Part shown: positions 4,713 through 29,911 of the stretch, one piece after another
Layout of the letters: every line of letters starts with the position of its first letter
Numbering within the stretch: position 1 is the first letter of the stretch
Assembly: GCA_937967325.1 (NCBI GenBank)
Contig: CALBSQ010000213.1
Coordinates: forward strand, 18,634-50,633
DNA: 32,000 bases
Direction of reading: 5' to 3'
From: an uncultured Chloroflexota bacterium
Lineage (GTDB): Bacteria > Chloroflexota > UBA4733
Notes under the pieces: model-generated
The model's database searches: none
What the model saw: only the letters and a program-made list of their open reading frames with translations
What the model was told of the DNA's origin: nothing
Program-made: the position numbers and the translations under genes

Positions 4713-5210
4713 GTGCACACCCGTGTACTAGTGTTGAACGCCTCGTACGAACCTCTCAGTGTAGTTCCGGTACGTCGGGCCGTTTCCCTGCTGCTGCGGA
4801 ACAAGGCGGAGATCGTCGAGGCGGCCGAGCGCGCGCTGCGCTCGATGCACTTGTCCATCGATTGGCCGTTGGTCATTCGATTGGTCTACTACGTCCGCAT
4901 CGGCACGCTGACGCGTCCGGCGCCGTTCACCCGGCGCGGCGTCATCATGCGCGACCGTATCTGCCAGTACTGCGGCGGGACGAACGATCTGACCATCGAT
5001 CACGTCAAGCCGTTGTCTCGTGGCGGCGCCTCCGACTGGACGAACTGCGTGGCGGCCTGCGGCCCCTGCAACCGCCGCAAGGGCAACCGGATGCCGGATG
5101 AGGCGAAAATGCCGCTGCGCCACCAGCCCTATCAGCCGCGCTATCTGGCCTTCGCGCTCGTATCGGCCAACCCGGCCGAGGAGGCCTGGCGCAAGTACCT
5201 GGCGAGCTGA
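4713..5210 (+). CDS. HNH endonuclease family protein
   Basis: GTG start preceded by AGGAGG (4697-4702). The CQYCGG...[13 protein letters not shown]...[15 protein letters not shown] block is a classic HNH/CxxC zinc-finger nuclease motif. The gene ends in TGA. Confidence 0.85.
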
Positions 5211-5301
5211 CCTAAGTGGCCGGGCCTAGCATTGGCCAACCGTCGTCTCTCCGCGAGAGGGATCGGGCAACGCCGCGAATGTGCGCGATACAAATCGTCC
5301 G

Positions 5302-5490
5302 TCAGGCGAGCGCGCCCTCAGCCATGGCGTCGTCGATGGCCTGGTCAAGGTCCATCACCTGGCCGGCCGCGTGGGCGGCCGAATAGGCGTCGTCGCCCAG
5401 GGCCTCCCGGACGACCGCCGGCACCCGATCTGGCGCCCGAATTGAGGCGCCGGTCTGGCTGTAGATCAGCTCCGCCGTGCCGAGGAAGCG
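5302..5490 (-). pseudogene. 3'-terminal remnant of a TPR-type (large ATPase/LuxR/SARP-like) regulator
   Basis: The C-terminal ~60 aa of ORF 5302..5553 (LGTAELIYSQTG...ALGDDAYSAAHAAGQVMDLDQAIDDAMAEGALA) are homologous to the C-terminus of ORF 6714..7397 (LGTAHALLASTD...IGEVAFAPAWAAGQTLTVEQAVAEALEGA). No upstream domains are present. Confidence 0.4.
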
Positions 5491-5848
5491 CGGCTTGCTG
5501 GTACTGACCTCGCGCGGCGGCAACAACAACGGCGACGGCGGTGGCATCTTCAACTTCTTCTATATGGCGACCCTGGGCAACACCCTCCTGGCCGGGAACA
5601 CGGCGGGCAGTGTGCAGGCCAGCGGGGCGAGCGCGGTCGCGATCTGCGGCAGCACGCTGCCCGAGCTGGACGTGCGCGGGACCACGGGCTCCCTACTGGT
5701 CGGCAGCGCCGGGGACGACGCGGCCACGCCCTGCGCGGCCAACACCATCAATGGGACAGTCCTATTGGACGGCAATCAGGGTGGGCTGGAGCTGGGCGGC
5801 AACCAGATCGGCGGCAGCGCCCCTACAGGCGGGCGCCGTAGACAATGA
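5477..5848 (+). pseudogene. Fragment of a parallel beta-helix repeat protein
   Basis: NGDGGGIFNFFYMATLGNTLLAGNTAGS and INGTVLLDGNQGGLELGGNQIGG resemble GGxIxN...GNxA beta-helix repeats. The piece is only 123 aa, has no signal peptide, and overlaps the neighbouring remnant. Weak call. Confidence 0.3.
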
Positions 5849-5950
5849 CAATTCGCCTGGCAAACGGCCCGCTAGAGCGACGCGTGCTTGGCCTTATGGC
5901 ATACTGTGCTGACCGCGGGCCGATCCGCGCGGACCGAAGGAGGAGACAGC

Positions 5951-6523
5951 GTGGCGACCGAGCTAGCGGAGACGGTGGCCGGGAAACCCTACTGTTTCAC
6001 CGTCGACGACTATATGCGCATGAGTGAGGCGGGCATCTTTCAAGAAGACGACCCCGTTGAGCTGATTGAAGGGGAGATCCTCCAGATGGCGGCGGTCGGT
6101 GGCGATCACATTGGTTGTGTCAATACCCTGACCGCCCTCCTCGTGCATGGGGTCTACGGTATGGCGACGGTCAGCGTGCAGAATCCCGTCCGCCTTTCCA
6201 ATCACAGCGAGCCGGAGCCGGACGTTGCCTTGCTGCGACCCGATTTGCCAAGAAATGCCAAACCGGGGCCGACCGATGTGCTCCTGCTGATCGAGGTGGC
6301 CGACTCCTCACGCCTCTATGATCGCAGCCGAAAGATTCCGCTGTATGCCCGTTCCGGCATTATCGAAACCTGGCTGGTGGACCTGGTCGCCGGAACCATC
6401 GAGCAGAACACCGAGCCGAGCGCGGAGGGCTATGGCCAGACCACATTGCATCGCCGGGGGGATATCATCACGCCGGCAGCACTGCCGTTCTTGAGCCTTG
6501 ATGTCGGTGAGGTGCTCGGCTAA
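5951..6523 (+). CDS. Uma2-family (DUF820) putative endonuclease
   Basis: FTVDDYMRMSEAGIF...VELIEGEI...EPEPDVAL...LLIEVADSS...DRSRKIPLYARSGIIETWLVDL is the Uma2/PD-(D/E)xK pattern. I place the start at GTG 5951, in frame with track ORF 5888..6523, because GGAGGAG lies at 5938-5944. Confidence 0.8.
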   Translation: MATELAETVAGKPYCFTVDDYMRMSEAGIFQEDDPVELIEGEILQMAAVGGDHIGCVNTLTALLVHGVYGMATVSVQNPVRLSNHSEPEPDVALLRPDLPRNAKPGPTDVLLLIEVADSSRLYDRSRKIPLYARSGIIETWLVDLVAGTIEQNTEPSAEGYGQTTLHRRGDIITPAALPFLSLDVGEVLG

Positions 6524-6713
6524 GCGCGGAGCGACCGCGCGTGGCGCTGGCCGCGTCGGCGTGGGCGCGATTGCGAGCGCGGTTACCCGCTCCAGCGCCG
6601 CACACCGAGACGTGGACGAGGCGTTCTGCGTCCTACCAAGCCGGGGGAGATTCCTGGTCGGCGAGCCGACGATCGTCGCTCCGACCGGGCCCTTCCTCCT
6701 GATTCTGTGCCGG

Positions 6714-7397
6714 CTACGCCCCCTCCAGCGCTTCGGCGACAGCTTGCTCCACTGTCAGCGTCTGGCCCGCCGCCCAGGCAGGGGCGAACGCGACCTCACC
6801 GATGCGCTCCCGCGCCATCTGGAGGGTTTCCGCGCGATCGGAAAGGCCGAGCCAACTGTCGACGAGCGACGAGTCGGTGCTGGCGAGCAAGGCGTGCGCC
6901 GTTCCGAGCAGGCGCAGCGCGCGTTCGGGCTGCTCGCGCGCCGCGCTGATCGAGGCGAGCAACTCCAGGGAGGCGACGACACCCTCGCGGGAACCGTTGT
7001 CGCGGTGGATGGTCAGACTTTGCGCCGCGAGCGTCGTCGATCGCGACAGGTCGCCCTGGCGATAGGCAACCTGTCCCAGCAGGGTGATGCCATAACCCCC
7101 AACGCGCCTGAGACCCATACGCGTCCTCAGCGCGAGACCCTGCTCGAGCCAAGTCGCGGCCGCCGTCAGCTCGCCGCGCTGCAAGGCCACCGCTCCCAGA
7201 CCAACCTGCATCCCATAGAGGTGAATCGGCGAGTCCAGCTCGAGCGCGAGCTCGAGCCCTTCCTCGAACAGCGCCTGGGACCGCTCAAGCTGGCCCTCCA
7301 GCCGAGTGGACTGGCCGAGCTCCATCAGCACCTCCAGCATGAGAAAGCGCTCGCCGACCTGGCGCAGGATCGCCGGCCCCTGCTCCAGCAGTGTCAT
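6714..7397 (-). pseudogene. C-terminal TPR domain remnant of a large regulator (N-terminal ATPase/DNA-binding parts missing)
   Basis: The 227-aa ORF consists of TPR-like helical repeats only (LGQSTRLEGQLERSQALFEEGLELALE..., LLGQVAYRQGDLSRSTTLAAQSL...). An in-frame TGA lies 6 codons upstream of the ATG. On my recollection, full-length relatives are several-fold longer. Confidence 0.55.
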
Positions 7398-7419
7398 CGC
7401 CCGCGCGCGGTCTCACCTG

Positions 7420-8055
7420 GACCGGGCCGCCACGCCAACCATCATAAATCAGCACTCCAACGAAGCGAACGGCTGCGCGCCCGCCGGCCTCGCCGGTAGC
7501 GGGAACAACCTGTTCACCGGCGTGAAGACGCCGGGGGCCTGCAACAACGACATCCTGGTGAGTGTTTCTGGGGACGGAGGCAGCAGCTTCACGGGGACGA
7601 CGACCGACCCGCGGCAGCTCACGACCGTCACCCAGGCGCCCGGCCAGGCGACCACCGACCAGTTCTGGCAGTGGAGCGCCTTCACCAACGATGCCCGGCT
7701 GGTCGTGTCCTATTTCGACCGGCAGTATGGCAAGGATGATGCGACCGGCTTCTCGGACACCAGCCTGTCCAGCTCGGAGGATCTCGACCATTTCGCGGCG
7801 CAGCGAGTCACGATGGGCTCGATGCCGCCGCCGACCGAATTCGGAGGGATGTTCTTCGGCGATTACACCGGGCTAGCGGCCGTGGACGACGCCCACCCGC
7901 TGTGGATGGACACGCGGGATGCGGAGCTGTTCCTGTGTCCCGGCAGCGGCGCGCCCGGGGCACCGCCGGCGCTCTGCACGGCGTCGGCCAGCAACGCCAG
8001 CCGCGCCAACGACCAGGATATCTTTACCCAGTCCATCAATCCGCGGCAGCAGTAG
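7420..8055 (+). pseudogene. C-terminal remnant of a BNR/sialidase-like propeller protein
   Basis: Distal part of ORF 7306..8055. It has an Asp-box-like VSGDGGSSFTG and FFGDYTGLAAVDDAHPLWMDTRD (compare WGDYTAAALDP in the 864..3524 protein). There is no N-terminal domain or signal peptide, and it abuts the truncated TPR remnant on the other strand. Confidence 0.5.
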
Positions 8056-8080
8056 CGCGGCGCCGCGGACCGTCAGCGCC

Positions 8081-8111
8081 GGCCCCACTCCCGACAGGCG
8101 GGAGCGGGGCC
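8081..8111 (+). terminator. GC-rich hairpin downstream of the BNR remnant stop
   Basis: GGCCCCACTCCCG-ACAGG-CGGGAGCGGGGCC pairs at 12 of 13 positions, 26 nt after the TAG at 8053-8055. No U-tract. Confidence 0.3.
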
Positions 8112-8347
8112 GGCGCAGCCAGGATGGGATTTGCTCGACGGGCAGACGTCACGCCGCCCAGTCCAACGGTGGAGCGACCGCGCCCAAGTCACCCGATCCT
8201 GTCACGTCGAAGCTCTTTCCGCGCTTTGCCTCGCCGGCAGAAACGCCGCCGGTACGCTGCTCAGTCAGCACATCATGTGGCAAGCAGGATCGTAGACTAG
8301 GGGCACGCTCGGTCACCGGGACCGTTCGGCTGGTCGACCGGCTGAAT

Positions 8348-9358
8348 GTGGCCCGAGACGGCAGCGAGAGTCGTCGCGTGCGCGGGGAGAGTTGGGCGTC
8401 GGATGTGTCCATAGCACGCAAGGATGATCCGTTCGGTACCGCCGCCGGTGATCTCTCCGCTCCCGCTCATCTGGAGTCCGACGGCGTGCTCACCACGGCG
8501 TTCTCGGACCTCGACCTGCGCCGCTGGAAAGAACACGACGTCATCACGGGCTCGCTCTGGCTGCTGGGCGCCCGCGACAAAACGGGTCCCCACGTAGGCG
8601 ACTATTGGGGCAACTTCGTTCCCCAGATAGCTTCCCAGATCCTGAGGCGATTCACCAAAGCTGGTGAGGTCGTCGTCGATCTGTTCACTGGGATGGGCAC
8701 GACCCTGATCGAGTGCCGGCGACTTGGACGGCACGGTATAGGCGCCGAGCTCTTGCCCGACGTGGCCGAGCGCGCTCGACAACGAATTGTCGAGGCGGAG
8801 AATGCCGGTCGCGTCTCCACCGAGGTGCTGGTCGGCGATTCGCGCATGTCCGAAACCGTCTGCCTCGTCCGGGAAAGGATCGCGATGCTGGGCTTCGAGC
8901 ATGCCCACTGCGTGATCCTGCACCCGCCCTATCACGACATCATCAAGTTCAGCGACGACCCGCGCGACCTCTGCAACGCGCCCTCCATCGAGGCATTTCT
9001 CGGGGAATTTGAGAAGGTCGTCCTGAATGCCGTGGGTCTGTTGGAACCGGGGCGCTTTCTGGCGCTCGTGATCGGCGACAAGTATGCCAAGGGGGCATGG
9101 GTGCCGCTGGGTTTCCTCTGCATGGAGGTCTGCCGCACCCACGGTCTGCAACTCAAGTCCATCAACGTGAAGGACATCCAGGGCAACGAGAAGGGCAAGG
9201 GGAAGCTCGAGAATCTCTGGCGCTATCGGGCGCTTCGCCAGGGGAGCTCGGTCTTCAAGCACGAGTACGTGATGGTGTTCCGAAAGGGACCCAGGAAGTC
9301 AAGCCGCGATGCCGGCGGAGCGCCGTCGCGCGTGGTAGCGAGGAGGACCGGCGAGTGA
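8348..9358 (+). CDS. SAM-dependent methyltransferase, N4/N6 DNA-methylase-like with permuted motif order
   Basis: Motif I is VVDLFTGMGTTLIEC, motif IV-like is ILHPPYHDII, and the C-terminus carries HEYVMVFRKG, a hE.i.vf.K-type block as in N4/N6 DNA methylases. The first ~140 codons of track ORF 7919..9358 are Arg/Pro-rich and overlap the BNR remnant, so they are probably not translated. In-frame GTG candidates are at 8348, 8378 and 8405, so the start is uncertain. Confidence 0.65.
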   Translation: MARDGSESRRVRGESWASDVSIARKDDPFGTAAGDLSAPAHLESDGVLTTAFSDLDLRRWKEHDVITGSLWLLGARDKTGPHVGDYWGNFVPQIASQILRRFTKAGEVVVDLFTGMGTTLIECRRLGRHGIGAELLPDVAERARQRIVEAENAGRVSTEVLVGDSRMSETVCLVRERIAMLGFEHAHCVILHPPYHDIIKFSDDPRDLCNAPSIEAFLGEFEKVVLNAVGLLEPGRFLALVIGDKYAKGAWVPLGFLCMEVCRTHGLQLKSINVKDIQGNEKGKGKLENLWRYRALRQGSSVFKHEYVMVFRKGPRKSSRDAGGAPSRVVARRTGE

Positions 9359-24454: not shown

Positions 24455-26331
24455 TCAGTCGTCCAGCTCGCAGGCGCAGGTGGTCACCTCGCGCGTGATG
24501 GTCCTGGGGCCGGCGTAGACGTGGGTCGTGCAGGGCATGCAAGGGTCGAAGCTGCGGATAGTGCGCAGGATGTCGATGGCCTTGAACTCCTCCGGGCTGT
24601 TGAATTGCTCGAGAATGGGCGTGTTCACGACCGCTTCTTCGTACGGTCCCGGCTGGCCGAAGGGGTCGACGGGAGAGGCGTTGGTGGTGGAGGGCGTGCA
24701 GATTTGGTAGTTTGTTATGACGCCGCGATCCATGGTGAGGTGATGGGCCAGGTAGCCGCGACCGGCGCCCCAGAAGCCCACGCCGATGCGCGGATCTCGC
24801 GGCACCTTGAAGTCGGCCGAGACGGCCGTCTCTCCCCTCTTCATCAAGTTGTAGCCGGCCAGCAGGTTGTTGAGGCAGACCAGCGCGGTGTAGGCCTGCG
24901 CGTAGGCACGGGCGCGGTTGCGCTCGATGGCGTTGCACTCGCTCGGCACCACCCATTCCAGCGTCATCTCCGGCAGCGCGCCCTTCGGCATGACCAGCCG
25001 CAGACTGGTCCCGGTCGACTCGATGAAGGGGTTGGCGGGCAGCTTCTTGGCGACGGCGGTGATCCACATGCGCGCGTAGGCGCCCGCCTCCACCACCTGG
25101 CGGTCCCAGCGCGGCGCCGTGCCCCAGGTGTATTTCTCCTTCCAGCTCCGACCCCCGGCCTGGGGAGCGTCTGCTTGTTCCAGGGATGATGGGGGCTCAG
25201 CGGGCTGCCCAGCGGGTCGGTGCGGTAGGGCGGCGTGCCGCCGGCCCAGCCTTCGTAGTAGGAGTGCTCGACGAACTCCTCCAGTCCCAGGTTGATGCTG
25301 TGCAGGCTCGTGGTCCTCAGCTCGCCGTCGATCATGACGCCCGGAGTCGCCCAGCGCCGCTCTCCCCAGTCGGCGGCGTGCTCGTAGCGGGCGTCGTAGG
25401 CCTCGTGGTGCTCCCAGATGCCGAGGTCGATTAGGTGGCGAGGCCGCACGCCCACGCGGTGGAAGCCGGGATTGGCTTGGTAGAGGAACTCCGAGATGTC
25501 GTCCCAGATGGTCACCATCCGCTTGGCGTGGTCCAGCAGCGTGAACAGGCGGATCTGATACTCGTTGAACGTCTGGGTGCTGATCGTCGTGCTGATGCCG
25601 CCCGGCACGATGGTCTGGGGGTGCGGGTACTTGCCCCAGACCAGGGAACACATCTCGCGCGCTCGGCGGGTGATCTCCAGCGCTTCCAGGTAGAGCGGGC
25701 CGGAGAGCGGATTGAGGGCGGTCATTAGGTCGGCCATGGTCCGGAAGCCGTGGACGGCGGCGTTCGGGGCCGCCGCCTGCTCCGCCTTGCCCCAGATCTC
25801 GGGATTGGTGGACCGGATGATAGCCTCGGAATAGTCGGGGCCGGCCAGCAGGAACAGGTGGAGCGGGTGGTCGTACAGGAACTCGGCCGCCTGCCCCAGG
25901 TTGCGCACCACGATCCCCATGGGCGGCGGCTGCACCCCGAAGGCCATCTCGATCGCTTCGGCGGCGCAGTTGGAGTGGACGCCGCCACAGACGCCGCAGG
26001 CGCGACTGGAGATGTAGATGGCGTCGCGTGGGTCACGTCCTTTCAGGATCACCTCGTAGCCGCGGAACAGCGTGGCCATGGAGTGCGCGTCGTGGACCGT
26101 GCGGTTCTCCAGGTCGACCACGGAGTGGAAGGCCAGGGCGCCGGCCACACGGGTGACCGGGTCGATGCTGACCTCCTTGATGTGGCCGTTCCTGGCCAGC
26201 AGCTCTTCGATGCGCTGCTGGCGGTCCTCCACCGCGCGGGTGCTCGTGTAGGTGTAGGGGTCGGTCGCGCCCTCTTTCAGGTGCGCTCGGCCTTGCTCGT
26301 CGAACTCGATGGGCAGGTTCTTGAAGCACAT
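24455..26331 (-). CDS. [NiFe]-hydrogenase large subunit (group 1h/5-like), with an apparent 1-nt frameshift near 25162-25165
   Basis: The N-terminal ORF 24964..26331 carries the L1 motif SSRACGVCGGVHSNC. The C-terminal ORF 24455..25651, in another frame, carries SFDPCMPCTTHVY plus a cleavable tail. The two frames meet at ...HPWNKQTLP | QAGGRSWKEKYTWGTAPRW. Adding one C to the C4 run of the mRNA gives a continuous 625-aa protein. Confidence 0.85.
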
Positions 26332-26344
26332 GGACCGACCCTCT

Positions 26345-26623
26345 CTACTGCGCCATTTCCGCCAGGCGACGCTCGGCCGAGCCGAGGCTAGCGGCGATCG
26401 CCTCGCCGCCAGCGGCGAGCTGCGTCAGCGCCGCCGCGGTGATCGGCAGCTCGGTCTTGAGGATGGCCGTCTCGCTCTCGATGGCGCGCACCCCCATGGC
26501 GATCTTGGCCAGCGAGCGATTGATCCCCTCCAGGGCGGTACGGATACGGCTCAGCATCGCGACCAGGGCGCCGAGGAAGAGCCAGAGCGCCAGCGTGGAG
26601 AGGATGGTCAGGATTAGCGGCAT
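26345..26623 (-). CDS. Small single-pass membrane protein, type B' of a four-gene paralog array
   Basis: 92 aa with an N-terminal TM (LILTILSTLALWLFLGALVAML) followed by a helical region (INRSLAKIAMGVRAIESETAIL...). It is a paralog of 26956..27261. The TGATG junction gives a 1-nt overlap with the upstream gene, and the gene ends 13 nt before the large-subunit start. Confidence 0.7.
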   Translation of the reverse strand: MPLILTILSTLALWLFLGALVAMLSRIRTALEGINRSLAKIAMGVRAIESETAILKTELPITAAALTQLAAGGEAIAASLGSAERRLAEMAQ

Positions 26624-26943
26624 CAGGGCGCCTCCCCTCTTGGGTTCTTCCGGGCGAGCGCCCGGCCCAGGCCGGCAAGTCGGCCCTCGATCGCCGACGT
26701 CGTACGATCCAGCACCTCCACCGCTTGCAGCAGCCGGCCGGCGGTCTGGAGGACGCCTTCGAGCTGGGCGATCGTCGCGGTGTTGCCGGCGATGCCCTGT
26801 GCCGCCGGGAGCGCCACCTTGGCCAGCCGGTTGATCTCGCGGGCATGACCGATGACGACGACGATGTTGGCGACGGCGATGACCGTGAGGATGAGGGCGA
26901 CGACGAGGGCAATCCAGCCGACGACGATAATGGCCGCGTCCAT
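26623..26943 (-). CDS. Small single-pass membrane protein, type A' of the paralog array
   Basis: 106 aa with an N-terminal TM, then AREINRLAKVALPAAQGIAGNTATIAQLEGVLQTAGRLL. It is a clear paralog of 27263..27574 (ANRIDRHALAVWEAGKGIAANTVQIWQLQ). Confidence 0.7.
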   Translation of the reverse strand: MDAAIIVVGWIALVVALILTVIAVANIVVVIGHAREINRLAKVALPAAQGIAGNTATIAQLEGVLQTAGRLLQAVEVLDRTTSAIEGRLAGLGRALARKNPRGEAP

Positions 26944-26955
26944 GGGCGCCCTCCC

Positions 26956-27261
26956 TCAGGCCACGCGTCTGACAGCGACTGCTTCGCCCATGACGGCCGC
27001 CAGATGCCCGTCGGTTGCTTCCAGGTGATCCGCGGTCGAGCTCAAGCCCCGCGCCACAGCGCCGAGCCCCGTGTTCAGCACGTTGATGTGTTGCGCCAGT
27101 GGGGCCGTCTGCCGCTCGACCAGTTGCACTCCCACTGCGATCCGGCTGAGGGTGCTCCCGATGCTCCAGAGGGCGACGGCGATGATGATCAGGCTCACCG
27201 CCAGCACCACGATCAGGACGACGGCGTAGATAATAGCGACCCAGGTCAAGACGGCGACCAT
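26956..27261 (-). CDS. Small single-pass membrane protein, type B of the paralog array
   Basis: 101 aa with an N-terminal TM (WVAIIYAVVLIVVLAVSLIIIAVAL), then STLSRIAVGVQLVERQTAPLAQHINVL..., paralogous to 26345..26623. Confidence 0.7.
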   Translation of the reverse strand: MVAVLTWVAIIYAVVLIVVLAVSLIIIAVALWSIGSTLSRIAVGVQLVERQTAPLAQHINVLNTGLGAVARGLSSTADHLEATDGHLAAVMGEAVAVRRVA

Positions 27262-27262
27262 G

Positions 27263-27574
27263 CTAGCCCTTTCCCTGGAGGGCCGCGGGCAGCCGCTCCA
27301 GTCGCTGGTCGATCGAGCCGGCCACCGCGGCGATGCCCTGGGCGGTCTGCAGGATCTCCGTGGCCGTGGCGTTGGTCTTCTGGAGCTGCCAGATCTGGAC
27401 GGTGTTGGCGGCGATGCCCTTGCCCGCCTCCCAAACCGCCAGCGCGTGGCGGTCGATGCGATTGGCGGCCGCGGCGATCCAGATCAGCAACAGGGCGACC
27501 ACGACGATGACGATTGCCGCGGCGCCCAGCGTGATCCACCAGACGGTGATAACGTCCATCGGATCATTTCCCAC
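27263..27574 (-). CDS. Small single-pass membrane protein, type A of the paralog array
   Basis: 103 aa from GTG 27574, with an alternative ATG at 27559. It has an N-terminal TM (VWWITLGAAAIVIVVVALLLIWIAAAA) followed by a helical region. It lies 24 nt after the small-subunit stop and 1 nt before the next gene. Confidence 0.7.
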   Translation of the reverse strand: MGNDPMDVITVWWITLGAAAIVIVVVALLLIWIAAAANRIDRHALAVWEAGKGIAANTVQIWQLQKTNATATEILQTAQGIAAVAGSIDQRLERLPAALQGKG

Positions 27575-27598: not shown

Positions 27599-28828
27599 CT
27601 ACTGCCTGACCTGCTTCGCAGCGGTGTTGCGCCGCTGCGCCGAATCGTAGCCGCGATGCACCAGCCGGTCGACGAAGGTCGTGCTCGAGGCGGCGCCCCA
27701 GCCGATCGGCGCCTGGCCGGTTTCGTCCCAGCGCACCTCGCGGTTGCGGTCGCGCTGGGTGATCCGGCGCAGCGGCCGAACGAAAGAGCCCACCAGGCGC
27801 GAGGCCGTGCCGGACACCATCGTGCCCGGCGGGGCCGTGTAGAAGGGCGCAAACTTATCGGGGAAGCCGGGCATGGTACAGCCGATGCAGGGAGCGCCGG
27901 TATTCATTCAACCGCCGACGTGGTTGATGGCGCCGCGGCTGGTGATGTTGCAGTTGACCACGGGTCCCCAGCAGCCGATCTCCACCAGGCACTCCTTGTC
28001 GCCGTACTCCTTGGCGAAGGAGCCCTCCTCGTAGTAGCCGGCGCGCAGGCACTGGCGGTGGACGGTCTCGCCGAAGAGCCAGGCCGGCCGCCCCAGGTCG
28101 TCGAACTCCGGCGAGGGGCCGATGCCTTGCAGGAAGAGCAGGATGGCGGCGACCGTTTCGGTGAAGTTGTCGCCGATGGGCGAGCAGCCGGGCACGTTCA
28201 CCACCGGCAGCCCCAGCGCCGAGCGGTAATCCCGTCCCAGGAAGTCCATCATGCTCATGGCACCGGTGGGATTGCCGTAGGCTGCCGGGACGCCGCCCCA
28301 GGTAGCGCAGGTGCCGATGGCGATCACGGCAGCCGCGCCGGGCGCCAGACGCTGGACCCATTCCGCGGACGGGATCTGGCGCTTCCCGCCGGTTGCCGGG
28401 TTCTCCTCCTCGCCCACCGCCGACCAGTAGCCGCCCTGTGGCCCGGCCTTGCTCTCGTCGGCGATGGAGCCCTCGTAGACGATGACGTAGGGGTCTCCCA
28501 GCTCACCGCGCCAGGCCCGGCGCATCGGCTCGACGAAGGCGTCGCCGGCCTCGAGCTGGATGGCGGTGTGATGCAGGTAGACGATCGGCACGCCGGGGAT
28601 GGAGCCGGTGAGCAGGCTCTCCACGGACGGCTGTGTGGCGCTCAGCACGGCGATGGAGCAACCGTCACAGCTCATGCCGGCCAGCCAGAAGACGTGTACG
28701 CGCTCGAACGGACCCAGCTTCGTCGCCGGACCTGCCTTGGCGGCGACGATATTGGCCCATTCCTCCTGACTGATGCCGGCCACGTTGCCGGCCTGGGAGA
28801 TCGGGGGCATCGGCTCAGCAACGGTCAT
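27599..28828 (-). CDS. [NiFe]-hydrogenase small subunit (no Tat signal), interrupted by one in-frame TGA at 27908-27910
   Basis: ORF 27908..28828 carries the proximal-cluster region (FWLAGMSCDGCS, GTCATWGG, PGCSP) and the distal/medial region (HRQCLRAG...ECLVEIGCWGPVVNCN...HVGG). After the TGA, ORF 27599..27907 continues in the same frame with MNTGAPCIGCTMPGFPDKFAPFY, which is the conserved CIGC end of the same domain. The SD AAGGAGGG precedes ATG 28828. Confidence 0.85.
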
Positions 28829-28861: not shown

Positions 28862-29665
28862 TCACACGCCGGCGGGGATCGGAAGCCCTAGCCGCTCGAC
28901 CAGTTGGTCGGCGAGGTCCTGGACTGCTGCCACCGCCGGCGCGTTGGCGTCGTGGTCGATGATCGCCCGGCCGAGGTGGTCCGCCTCGGTGACGCGCTCA
29001 TCAAATGGCACTTGTCCGACGATGTCGAAGCCGCGGCGCGCGCAGTACTCGCGGAGCGCCGCCTCATCGCGGCCGTCGCGCACCTTATTGGCAACGACCC
29101 AGACCCGCTCCAGACCGAGCTCTTGAGCAAGGGGCACCATGCGCCCTGCCGTTTCCAGCGAGCGGTAGTAGGGCTCGGTCACGACCAGCAGCACGCCGAC
29201 GTTGCGCACCGTGCCGCGCGTGAGGTGTTCGATCGAGGCTTCCATATCGAGGATGGTGACGTCGCTGGGCCGCTGTGCCGGCAGCTCACCCATGACGCCG
29301 CGTACCGCGGCGTGCTGTCCGCAGAGTCAACCCTTGCCCGCGCCGAGCAGGCCCGTCATCATGAGCACGCCGACGTTATCGGGTCCGTGGGTCCCGTACT
29401 CTCCCAGCACTTCCTCGAACGGCCTGGTGAGGTGCAGCGCGTGATGCCCATCGGCGTCGGCGCGCTCCTCCAGGATGTCGTCCCGGGGTACCCGCTTGAG
29501 GCTATGCAGTTGGTCGGGTGTCAGGCCGAGCGCCGTGGCAAGGTTCGGGTTCGGGTCGTCGTCCAGGGCGTTGACGCAGTAGCCGCGGCGGGCGAGCACA
29601 CGGGCCAGCCTCGCCGCGACGGTCGTCTTTCCCGAGCCGCCTTTGCCGGAGAGTCCAATGCGCAC
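28862..29665 (-). CDS. CooC-type (MinD/ParA-family) nickel-insertion ATPase, interrupted by one in-frame TGA at 29327-29329
   Basis: GTG 29665 is preceded by GAAGGAAG. The deviant Walker A is GLSGKGGSGKTT. After the TGA the same frame continues LCGQHAAVRGVMGEL...ILDMEASIEHLTRGT...VVANKVRD, matching the CooC pattern on both sides of the stop. Track ORFs 29327..29710 and 28862..29293 are the two halves. Confidence 0.8.
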
Positions 29666-29911
29666 TAGTTCACTTCCTTCGCTGACGCTGTGGAGTCCGG
29701 TCGACCACATCTTGGCCGGCTGCGGACCCGTGGCGATCGCGCGCCTGGCCAGACGCTCCTTCCTCGACGACGACGGAGGGCAGGCCGCAAGTGCTCAGCC
29801 CTTAGTACATCGGAACGAACAGCAGGGCAAGGTAAACGCTCTTGGCGGGAGCACCATGGATCTCCGTGACATGCCCGGTAGCAGACCATCTAGGGCGACC
29901 GTACGGCCAGC

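Follow-up and report, generated by a model that had tools for sequence, protein, structure and literature searches.

An in-frame TGA with a conserved downstream hairpin as a very likely selenocysteine codon in a CooC-type ATPase linked to [NiFe]-hydrogenases

CooC1 of Carboxydothermus hydrogenoformans (PDB 3kje) is the ATP-dependent nickel-insertion factor of the Ni,Fe-CO dehydrogenase, and its C-x-C motif chelates metal at the dimer interface (PMC3792862). A comparable function is known from Thermococcus kodakarensis, in which the Mrp/MinD-type 'HypB' (3vx3, 5aun-5auq), a MinD-family ATPase and not the usual GTPase, serves nickel insertion into the [NiFe]-hydrogenase. To our knowledge, this protein has neither a C-x-C nor a U-x-C motif at the matching column. 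The replacement of a nickel-ligating Cys by selenocysteine (Sec) is a feature of the [NiFeSe] hydrogenases of groups 1 and 3 and, as of 2026, group 4, which carry Sec in the catalytic large subunit. Their UGA is followed by a bacterial SECIS with G at loop position 1 or 2 (PMC13582414). A further point of comparison is provided by the HesB-like (IscA-type) selenoproteins, which are among the 25 families listed in PMC1794560. In these cofactor-assembly proteins, the Cys exchanged for Sec binds a metal or a cluster and is not the redox-active Cys of an oxidoreductase.

The gene described here encodes a CooC/MinD-type P-loop ATPase and lies on the minus strand (28862..29665) of a 32,000-nucleotide stretch of DNA from an uncultured Chloroflexota bacterium, referred to below in its entirety as the window. 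It comprises 267 codons when its internal TGA is decoded. Translation of minus-strand positions 28862..29710 yields a single frame whose sole internal stop is the TGA at 29329-29327, and the read-through product, counted from the GTG at 29665, consists of 112 amino acids, the TGA-encoded residue (U) and a further 154 amino acids, ending at a terminal TGA (28864-28862). The GTG is the most likely start, in preference to the ATG at 29710, because a Shine-Dalgarno-like box read from the sequence (GAAGGAAG, minus strand, 29673..29680) lies 7 nt upstream of it and all homologues begin with MRI or VRI; the gene caller also begins the 112-aa product (P0121) at this codon.

The translation contains the deviant Walker A motif GKGGSGKTT (29621..29647, minus strand), whose residues G-K-G-G-x-G-K-T-T are invariant in the homologue alignment. 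Pfam matches are to CbiA/ParA/AAA_31, and the best PDB match is CooC1 (3kje, E 3e-30, 252 residues, 17-268); the T. kodakarensis 'HypB' is far more distant (E 2.9e-5). Homologues of 262-281 aa can be aligned from end to end. JGI labels homologues 'CO dehydrogenase maturation factor', and no NCBIfam model scores above its cut-off for the ATPase. The ATPase thus has in common with CooC1 the deviant Walker A, membership of the MinD/SIMIBI fold family and the C-x-C column, but differs from it in that the first Cys of this motif is replaced by TGA and in that its neighbour is the small subunit of a [NiFe]-hydrogenase rather than a Ni-CODH. The hosts of the TGA form, unlike the CooC1 setting, belong mostly to aerobic soil and desert lineages. 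The archaeal 'HypB' is not a selenoprotein, and it provides a precedent for the role proposed for the ATPase.

The TGA (29327..29329, minus strand), proposed here as the Sec codon, corresponds to residue 113. It stands between GGT (Gly) and CTC TGC (Leu-Cys), so that the second Cys of the U-x-C motif (TGC, 29321..29323, minus strand) lies two codons 3' of it. In the alignment from the PDB search, the TGA is placed opposite the first Cys of the CooC1 'CYC', and its column is occupied by Cys in all 29 of 29 full-length homologues. The second Cys is retained in each of 120 unique TGA-type sequences (TGC in 104, TGT in 16) and sits 5' of any possible restart codon. The metal-bridging C-x-C motif of the ATPase is complete only if Sec or Cys is inserted at the TGA. 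The location of residue 113 at a dimer interface is inferred by analogy with CooC1. Apart from the TGA position, the gene contains exactly three Cys codons. Many high-GC3 ORFs of the window terminate in TGA, as does the ATPase gene itself, and TGA is therefore an ordinary stop codon here. In these respects the initial annotation, which was prepared without database searches, was confirmed: the TGA, the coordinates of the hairpin discussed below, the single reading frame, the match to the first Cys of the CooC1 motif (3kje alignment), the count of three other Cys codons (translation) and the ordinary use of TGA elsewhere in the window (many high-GC3 ORFs) all held.

Directly downstream of the ATPase gene, on the same strand, lies the gene for the [NiFe]-hydrogenase small subunit (27599..28828, minus strand; Pfam Oxidored_q6 and NiFe_hyd_SSU_C). 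It is followed by four short ORFs (26345..27574, minus strand), whose products of 92-106 aa have hydrophobic N-termini, and by the large subunit (24455..26331, minus strand), which is divided between ORFs of 455 and 178 aa that overlap and match NiFeSe_Hases. Small ORFs between the subunit genes are the group-1l arrangement (bioRxiv 10.1101/2020.08.06.239558); Rubrobacter indicoceani has five of them at this place. Genes for a Rieske protein (PF00355) and HycI (PF01750) are found downstream in the cluster. The designation group-1l-like rests on this gene arrangement, without phylogenetic placement of the large subunit. Genomic linkage of the ATPase gene to hydrogenase clusters is shown: in the window, as in most of the loci whose flanks are long enough, its neighbour is a hydrogenase small subunit, and no Ni-CODH gene was seen in these surroundings. 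Consequently, the protein is better termed a member of a hydrogenase-linked CooC-like clade. The 1.5 Mb surrounding the ATPase genes contain HypC, HypD and HypE; neither HypA nor HypB was detected there.

Both structural genes of the hydrogenase are disrupted in this strain. A 1-nt deletion in the G run 25152-25156, unique among 43 homologues, breaks the large-subunit gene in two, and the small subunit contains a TGA (27910-27908, minus strand) outside the Sec element, at a codon that specifies Cys in 77/77 homologues and is TGA in this strain alone. The initial annotation had counted this second codon, at 27908, as a further coincidence in support of Sec. That argument failed: no hairpin was found in the RNA 3' of the small-subunit TGA, whose fold is weaker than that of the homologues (-10.8 vs a homologue mean of -18.2 kcal/mol). 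The small-subunit TGA was rejected as a second Sec codon on the basis of the Cys in all 77 homologues and the weaker RNA structure downstream. Cys codons are the source of 10 of the 108 nonsense routes in this gene and of 10 of the 23 (~43%) single-base routes to TGA; a change from Cys to nonsense is not rare there. The small-subunit TGA and the large-subunit frameshift look like strain-specific decay, and since both structural genes are disrupted, the ATPase gene may no longer matter in this strain.

These lesions raise the possibility that the TGA of the ATPase is itself a nonsense mutation or a sequencing error in a pseudogene. In favour of this explanation are the two strain-unique lesions in the same operon (the small-subunit TGA and the large-subunit frameshift) and the origin of the window in a metagenome contig. 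The comparative data speak against it. Of 158 homologous genes fetched (DNA of 155 loci), 137 carry the TGA and 21 carry TGC or TGT, so that the Cys/Sec pairs sought at this column do exist. The carriers of the TGA form belong to five phyla and comprise Chloroflexota, Rubrobacter/Rubrobacteraceae (Rubrobacteria), Pyrinomonadaceae/Blastocatellia (Acidobacteriota), Armatimonadota and Vulcanimicrobiota. All of the best 120 database matches to the N-terminal 112 aa (71-99% identity) stop at the TGA site, nearly all being exactly 112 aa long; a Rubrobacter-type query gives the same pattern, and many cluster representatives at 50% identity terminate at this site as well. Verification of the TGA was also successful. 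A second, independent assembly is identical in sequence, including the TGA, and the codon is present in the complete genome of a cultured isolate, Rubrobacter indicoceani (CP031115.1). A further complete genome with the TGA form is the 3.39-Mb Rubrobacteraceae MAG CBDCNI010000001.1. Furthermore, selection is as strong downstream as upstream of the TGA (dN/dS 0.089 and 0.095, respectively, over 751 pairs), and the window gene retains the homologue-invariant residues 3' of the stop. Given the conservation in homologues, the second assembly and the isolate genome, the TGA is not a lesion or artefact, and a pseudogene or sequencing error is all but excluded. In the phylogeny, the U forms occupy the hydrogenase-linked clade, and the Cys forms make up an anaerobe outgroup and small nested groups.

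A different possibility is that of a conserved split gene, in which the TGA terminates translation, an internal start gives rise to the C-terminal 143-155 aa and the two chains assemble. Gene callers and RefSeq do annotate two ORFs (112/110 aa and 143/155 aa), and a GTG is present at position +8 in 90 of 120 sequences. However, the seven codons directly 3' of the TGA (+1 to +7), which precede any possible restart codon, vary synonymously: Leu is encoded by five different codons, Cys is invariant (TGC/TGT) and His is invariant (CAC/CAT). This stretch is thus under protein-level selection before any restart could occur. Moreover, no start codon exists at +8 in the remaining 30 of the 120 sequences, which have GTA, GTC, GTT or another non-start codon there and include the window gene, and a split would cost the active motif itself one of its metal ligands. 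The split-gene explanation is consequently very unlikely. It is shown that the UGA is conserved, that the sequence beyond it has the selection pattern of translated coding sequence and that homologues have Cys at this column.

Downstream of the TGA, the mRNA can form a SECIS-like hairpin (29295..29313, minus strand) with an 8-bp stem (ACGCCGCG/CGCGGCGU) and the loop GUA, beginning 13 nt after the UGA. At the DNA level, it reads ACGCCGCG-GTA-CGCGGCGT (29313-29295) with eight perfect base pairs. Counted from the U of the UGA, it spans +17..+35, with the loop G-U at +25/+26. The apical loop of a bacterial SECIS typically lies about 16-37 nt from the UGA, and the consensus calls for G as the first or second loop nucleotide (PMC13582414). 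On single-sequence evidence, the hairpin is only mildly unusual, as the 76-nt fold in the window has z = -1.4 and is equalled by 19 of 200 shuffles, and the window contains 17 perfect 8-bp hairpins where ~6 are expected. Its significance comes from comparative data.

Among 28 orthologues, 92% of the hairpin cells are paired, vs 20-58% in slid controls, and the covariation score is reached by none of 500 shuffles. A compensatory change from GC to AU occurs in 10 of the 28 sequences and couples a non-synonymous substitution (Ala to Thr) with a synonymous one (CGC to CGT). In 100 sequences, pair (21,31) is CG in 58, UA in 37 and UG in 4, and pair (22,30) is GC in 70, AU in 26, UA in 2 and GU in 2. 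Conservation of the hairpin by compensatory change is thus shown. Over the 12 codons after the UGA, dS is depressed to 0.33, vs ~1 in example gene pairs. The mean minimum free energy is -19.4 kcal/mol for TGA forms vs -13.6 kcal/mol for Cys forms (p = 2e-7), and z against synonymous recoding is -0.83 and -0.06, respectively. The hairpin was not found in most Cys forms. Those of the Dormibacterota specify an identical peptide, HATVRGL, but lack the hairpin; in Ktedonobacteria-like loci, a Cys-type paralogue also forms a hairpin at the same place. Of 120 sequences, 100 share a GUN or NGUNC loop. The Rubrobacter type, about one-sixth of the sequences, uses a different register with a shifted stem and a loop that begins with G. 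The expectation of the initial annotation that the hairpin would be conserved in TGA-bearing orthologues was therefore met, with covariation in addition and with absence from most Cys forms.

It should be mentioned that the conservation of the hairpin is partly forced by the conserved peptide A-[AT]-V-R-[GS], the loop GU being part of an invariant Val codon. No Rfam family matches the hairpin at gathering thresholds, and a permissive scan returned only a meaningless miRNA match. The SECIS of E. coli fdhF resembles the ATPase hairpin in beginning 11-13 nt after the UGA and in the position of the loop G-U (+23/+24 vs +25/+26). In contrast to fdhF, the ATPase hairpin lacks the bulged U; its simple stem is GC-rich and perfectly paired over 5-8 bp, and its loop has 3-5 nt. 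The two sequences are unrelated.

The TGA at 29329-29327 is very likely a Sec codon read by means of a bacterial SECIS. This is the most likely interpretation because the TGA occupies the same metal-binding Cys position in more than 100 genes of five phyla and is accompanied by a conserved hairpin; protein-level evidence is lacking, and the Sec machinery is unverified in the carriers. The main remaining rival is the decoding of UGA as a standard amino acid (Cys, Trp, Gly or Arg) by a near-cognate or suppressor tRNA, or by a SelB-like factor with Cys-tRNA, the hairpin merely stimulating read-through. In its favour, the data show translation through the UGA and a conserved hairpin but not which residue is inserted, and the Sec machinery has not been verified. 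Against it, every non-TGA homologue has Cys at this column, and the spacing and loop G of the hairpin are the standard signature of Sec. In addition, a plain TGC would be simpler than a leaky stop maintained in five phyla, and TGA is a normal terminator in these genomes, the ATPase gene included. Decoding as a standard amino acid is thus considered unlikely.

As regards the Sec machinery, no selA, selB, selD or tRNASec is present in the window, and the sel genes are also absent from a 7.6-kb rightward extension of the contig. ARAGORN detected no tRNASec in the window and 60 loci, and tblastn searches with E. coli SelA, SelB and SelD gave no match in 1.5 Mb of related loci. These null results are uninformative, because only 10-20 kb per genome was covered and absence is expected by chance. 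Rubrobacter xylanophilus has a tRNASec and five selenoproteins, and Sec-containing hydrogenases have been reported in metagenome-assembled genomes of Chloroflexota, Acidobacteriota and Armatimonadota (PMC13582414). The existence of Sec decoding in the carrier lineages is accordingly supported at the lineage level only.

Under the Sec interpretation, the following mechanism may be proposed. With a ribosome at the UGA, the hairpin that follows 13 nt further along the mRNA would serve as a bacterial SECIS and bring in SelB-GTP-Sec-tRNASec, so that Sec would be inserted without termination. The full product would be one 267-residue CooC/MinD-type ATPase with Sec in place of the first Cys of C-x-C. 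ATP would cause the ATPase to form a dimer, in which two U-x-C motifs would coordinate Ni(II) with two Se and two S ligands. The recipient of the nickel would be the neighbouring group-1l-like [NiFe]-hydrogenase, specifically its large subunit, and the ATPase would thereby perform the task that falls to HypB elsewhere. The Sec identity of the inserted residue, the involvement of SelB, the binding of nickel and the replacement of HypB are all inferred. The same applies to the selenium dependence of hydrogenase maturation suggested by the initial annotation, which remains an inference only, both structural genes looking broken in this strain. Compared with the [NiFeSe] hydrogenases, the ATPase likewise would have Sec for a nickel-ligating Cys, but in an accessory maturation protein instead of the catalytic subunit; in homologous clusters, the large-subunit genes use normal codons for Cys, without any in-frame TGA having been noticed. 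The HesB-like selenoproteins have an unrelated fold and handle Fe-S clusters, not nickel.

The TGA-type ATPase is not described in selenoprotein lists, NCBIfam models or the papers searched, and no CooC, MinD, ParA or AAA ATPase family appears in the literature examined, including the selenoprotein-family reviews of 2006, 2022, 2025 and 2026. Within the literature searched, it is therefore likely a new, apparently undescribed selenoprotein family. Literature matches for 'CooC' together with selenocysteine mostly proved to be the word 'cooccurrence'. The core claim of the initial annotation, a Sec codon with a hairpin in a CooC-type ATPase of a family unknown as a selenoprotein, was supported by all checks run.

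A bolder reading, which appears likely, is that a large selenoprotein family has been systematically mis-annotated as truncated ORFs, that Sec is its nickel ligand and that Sec is the ancestral state, the Cys forms in the hydrogenase-linked clade being later reversions. According to this reading, the maturation ATPase would be tied to the high-affinity (group-1l-like) [NiFe]-hydrogenases of aerobic members of the five carrier phyla. Hundreds of database entries, including RefSeq WP_162924435.1, are labelled as 'AAA family ATPase' fragments of 110-112 aa, and their merging across the TGA is warranted; selenoprotein catalogues and NCBIfam have no model for the family. Should the Sec interpretation hold, Sec decoding would be present in many aerobic soil lineages, in which it is rarely considered. 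The bacterial selenoproteins known so far are overwhelmingly redox enzymes, and a metallochaperone ATPase in which Sec binds the metal would represent a different use of selenium. The oxidation of atmospheric H2 in cold and hot deserts is attributed to the carrier lineages. Because the family is common in atmospheric-H2-oxidising lineages, selenium availability would be linked to trace-gas scavenging, and if the bolder reading is true, a supply of selenium would be needed for atmospheric H2 to be scavenged in desert and polar soils.

The CooC-like gene lies in a single open frame (28862..29710, minus strand) whose translation contains one internal stop, a TGA at 29329-29327 on the same strand, preceded by GGT (Gly) and followed by CTC TGC (Leu-Cys). 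Its real start is most probably the GTG at 29665 (minus strand), supported by a GAAGGAAG box 7 nt upstream and by the MRI/VRI N-terminus found in all homologues; the gene therefore comprises 112 codons, the TGA and 154 further codons. The protein belongs to the CbiA/ParA/MinD P-loop group of Pfam, and no NCBIfam model scores above its cut-off for it. The best match among solved structures is CooC1 of Carboxydothermus (3kje, E 3e-30, residues 17-268), and in this alignment the stop falls on the first Cys of "CYC". The C-x-C motif of CooC1 is responsible for metal chelation at the dimer interface (PMC3792862). Many high-GC3 ORFs of the window, including the CooC-like gene itself, terminate with TGA, which marks this codon as an ordinary terminator here. 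JGI metagenome contig Ga0212123_10001195 (75 kb) matches the window at 100% identity, and a second assembly (ENA ERZ27245795 k141_271812) is identical to it across 6.9 kb, so the features cannot be put down to a single assembler. Among GTDB species representatives, the best CooC match reaches 73%.

Full-length homologues, with identities of at most 69%, carry Cys at the TGA column in all 29 cases examined. With a query confined to the N-terminal 112 residues, the top 120 matches are 71-99% identical and nearly all exactly 112 residues long, meaning that the nearest relatives all terminate at the same site. A Rubrobacter-type query gives the same picture, with products of 110 residues, and among 1.84 billion cluster representatives searched, many 50%-identity clusters terminate at the TGA site. 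In a codon census based on the DNA of 155 related loci, the first position of C-x-C is TGA in 137 genes versus TGC/TGT in 21. The TGA carriers include Thermomicrobiales, Limnocylindria, Chloroflexia and Tepidiformaceae within Chloroflexota and, beyond that phylum, Rubrobacter/Rubrobacteraceae, Pyrinomonadaceae/Blastocatellia, Armatimonadota and Vulcanimicrobiota. Cys is found instead in the canonical CooC genes of anaerobes, in Dormibacterota, in two small groups of Chloroflexota and in a paralogue from Ktedonobacteria-like loci that adjoins a TGA-type copy. A cultured isolate, Rubrobacter indicoceani, also has the TGA in its complete genome (CP031115.1, 867579-868400; locus L160, 10001-10822), where RefSeq covers the N-terminal part with a 110-residue "AAA family ATPase" (WP_162924435.1) and the gene caller gives a separate 155-residue ORF. 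Such truncated annotation is general in NCBI, JGI and ENA records of the family. In a neighbour-joining tree, the hydrogenase-linked clade is filled by TGA forms, while the Cys forms constitute the outgroup and four or five small nested clusters. The tree suggests that selenocysteine (Sec) is old in this clade and has now and then been replaced by Cys. A second, more divergent CooC-like paralogue also has TGA at this column (L014, position 59; L083, position 7658; L139, position 8503), within the motif G-U-T-C-G-x-H-A-T-V-R-G-L-L ... MEAGLEH and with its own hairpin GCCAC/GUGGC; in the latter two loci the main TGA-type gene is a few kb away.

Selection on the coding sequence extends across the TGA. 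For 751 pairs of TGA-type genes, the median dN/dS is 0.095 before the TGA and 0.089 after it. The seven codons immediately following lie before the first codon at which translation could restart, and they are under selection at the protein level while synonymous change is free: in 120 sequences the Leu is encoded by CTC, CTG, CTA, CTT and TTG, whereas the motif's second Cys never varies (TGC 104, TGT 16), nor does a His (CAC 74, CAT 46). Codon +8 is not a start codon in 30 of the 120, the window included. A pseudogene is excluded by these data. A split gene, in which translation would re-initiate after the TGA, is strongly disfavoured, because codons +1 to +7 are constrained although they lie upstream of any restart, and because the start at +8 is missing from a quarter of the sequences. 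It can thus be inferred with considerable confidence, albeit from sequence alone, that ribosomes translate through the TGA.

Beginning 13 nt beyond the TGA, the transcript contains a perfect hairpin, ACGCCGCG-GTA-CGCGGCGT (29313-29295, minus strand). Taken alone it is only mildly unusual (fold z-score -1.4), and the window holds 17 perfect 8-bp hairpins versus about 6 expected. Pairing of the 8-bp helix holds in 92% of cells across 28 orthologues, versus 20-58% with the partner slid, and its covariation score is reached by none of 500 shuffles. Alignment pair 31/39 is G-C in 17 of these orthologues and A-U in 10, an exchange that couples a non-synonymous change from Ala to Thr with a synonymous one from CGC to CGT. 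The same register recurs in 100 of 120 unique sequences, where, counting from the U of UGA, pair (+21,+31) is C-G in 58, U-A in 37 and U-G in 4; pair (+22,+30) is G-C in 70, A-U in 26, U-A in 2 and G-U in 2; and pair (+23,+29) is always C-G. The loop is GUN, or NGUNC if the closing pair is open. The other 20, almost all Rubrobacter-type (L041-L051, L096-L105, L160), have an invariant stem GCGCAC/GUGCGC about 4 nt nearer the UGA and a 6-nt loop that opens with G and contains an Arg codon free to vary (CGC, CGT, CGA, CGG, AGA, AGG). In the 12 codons after the UGA, dS is lowered to 0.33, compared with about 1 in example gene pairs. The 48 nt after the codon fold with a mean of -19.4 kcal/mol in TGA forms versus -13.6 in Cys forms (p = 2e-7); relative to their own synonymous recodings, TGA forms are more stable (mean z -0.83) and Cys forms are not (-0.06). 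A natural control is provided by the Dormibacterota Cys forms, which encode the same peptide, HATVRGL, with non-pairing codons. The hairpin has very probably been selected as RNA. Its geometry matches that of a textbook bacterial SECIS, a hairpin that directs Sec insertion and whose consensus has G as the first or second base of the loop (PMC13582414); the loop G-U lies at +25/+26, as compared with +23/+24 in folded E. coli fdhF. No Rfam family matches the hairpin, and such absence is usual for bacterial SECIS elements. The initial annotation had described the frame, the TGA and its first-Cys position, the hairpin and the normal use of TGA elsewhere, and this description is accurate; the Cys/Sec pairs and the hairpin conservation in TGA orthologues that it had proposed to look for were also found, the latter with covarying pairs.

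In Ktedonobacteria-like loci (L032, L034, L036-L038, L054, L056, L063), the Cys-type paralogue lies 1.4-1.7 kb away from the TGA-type gene and has a hairpin of its own, CAUAUCAC-NGUGC-GUGAUAUG, at the equivalent site. The structure may be a relic of a SECIS or may simply follow from the I-T-V-R-D codons.

The residue inserted at the TGA is likely Sec. This identity remains an inference: searches found no tRNASec, selA, selB or selD in the window or in 1.5 Mb of related loci, a scope of only 10-20 kb per genome that includes no whole carrier genome. Rubrobacter xylanophilus possesses tRNASec and five selenoproteins (PMC5330540, PMC1794560), and Sec has recently been reported in group 4 hydrogenases encoded by MAGs of Chloroflexota, Acidobacteriota and Armatimonadota (PMC13582414). 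These reports support Sec decoding at the level of lineages.

The initial annotation had also cited a TGA in the adjoining hydrogenase small subunit (27910-27908, minus strand; context "NHVGG*MNTGAPCIGC") as a second coincidence favouring Sec. This argument failed, and the codon was rejected as a second Sec site. The position is TGC/TGT in 77 of 77 homologues, the nearest being 77-78% identical; no hairpin follows the TGA, the RNA after it is less structured (-10.8 versus a homologue mean of -18.2 kcal/mol), and, of the 23 single-base changes that would create a TGA in this gene, 10 start at Cys codons. It is likely a strain-specific nonsense mutation. The large subunit (24455..26331, minus strand) carries a 1-nt deletion at the G run 25152-25156, in the Gln codon of PxPQGRSWKEKYTW, which yields ORFs of 455 and 178 residues and is unique among 43 homologues. 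The second assembly shows both lesions in identical form, and the hydrogenase of this strain appears to be decaying. They weaken any claim on function in this organism, while the family-wide signal is not weakened. The left part of the window (4713-9358), encoding an HNH endonuclease, a Uma2-family putative restriction endonuclease, a TPR protein and an N6/N4 DNA methylase, could be a small mobile or defence-related patch and is unrelated to the CooC-like gene.

The CooC-like gene is situated directly upstream of the [NiFe]-hydrogenase small subunit, which is followed by four small ORFs with hydrophobic N-termini, the large subunit and, further downstream, NifU-like, Rieske, HycI-type protease, HypC and DUF6390 genes. 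The gene order is the same in R. indicoceani, where the small ORFs number five and the subunits are intact. The order of small subunit, small ORFs and large subunit has been described for group 1l hydrogenases in a preprint that mentions neither a CooC-like gene nor selenium use (bioRxiv 10.1101/2020.08.06.239558). In most loci with enough flank, the small subunit lies within 1.5-2.7 kb after the CooC-like gene; in the window's nearest relatives (L002, L003, L007), the large subunit is upstream instead. Searches of L001-L155 (1.5 Mb) by tblastn with E. coli queries recovered HypC, HypD and HypE in 11-15 loci, and HypA and HypB in none, although HypA is short and divergent and may be missed. 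The missing HypB is compatible with a CooC-like ATPase in its place, a possibility inferred only from gene content. Structure-search matches include the MinD-type ATPase of Thermococcus (PDB 3vx3). The Thermococcus enzyme replaces HypB. By analogy with it and with CooC1, the CooC-like protein would be the nickel-delivery NTPase of the adjoining hydrogenase. More speculatively, Sec may serve aerobes as a nickel ligand that is softer, more acidic and reversibly oxidised.

No selenoprotein of the CooC/MinD/ParA/AAA ATPase type appears in the 25-family list of 2006 (PMC1794560), the prokaryotic selenoprotein reviews of 2022 and 2026 (PMC9312934, PMC13188914), the deep-Sep paper and its supplements, the main text of the BSepDB paper, Haft's 2022 preprint or NCBIfam release 20, and targeted literature searches for a CooC-type selenoprotein found nothing. 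Within the literature and databases searched, the TGA-containing CooC-like genes likely represent a new selenoprotein family using the known bacterial Sec mechanism. The family has many members across several phyla, and they are consistently annotated as truncated ORFs.
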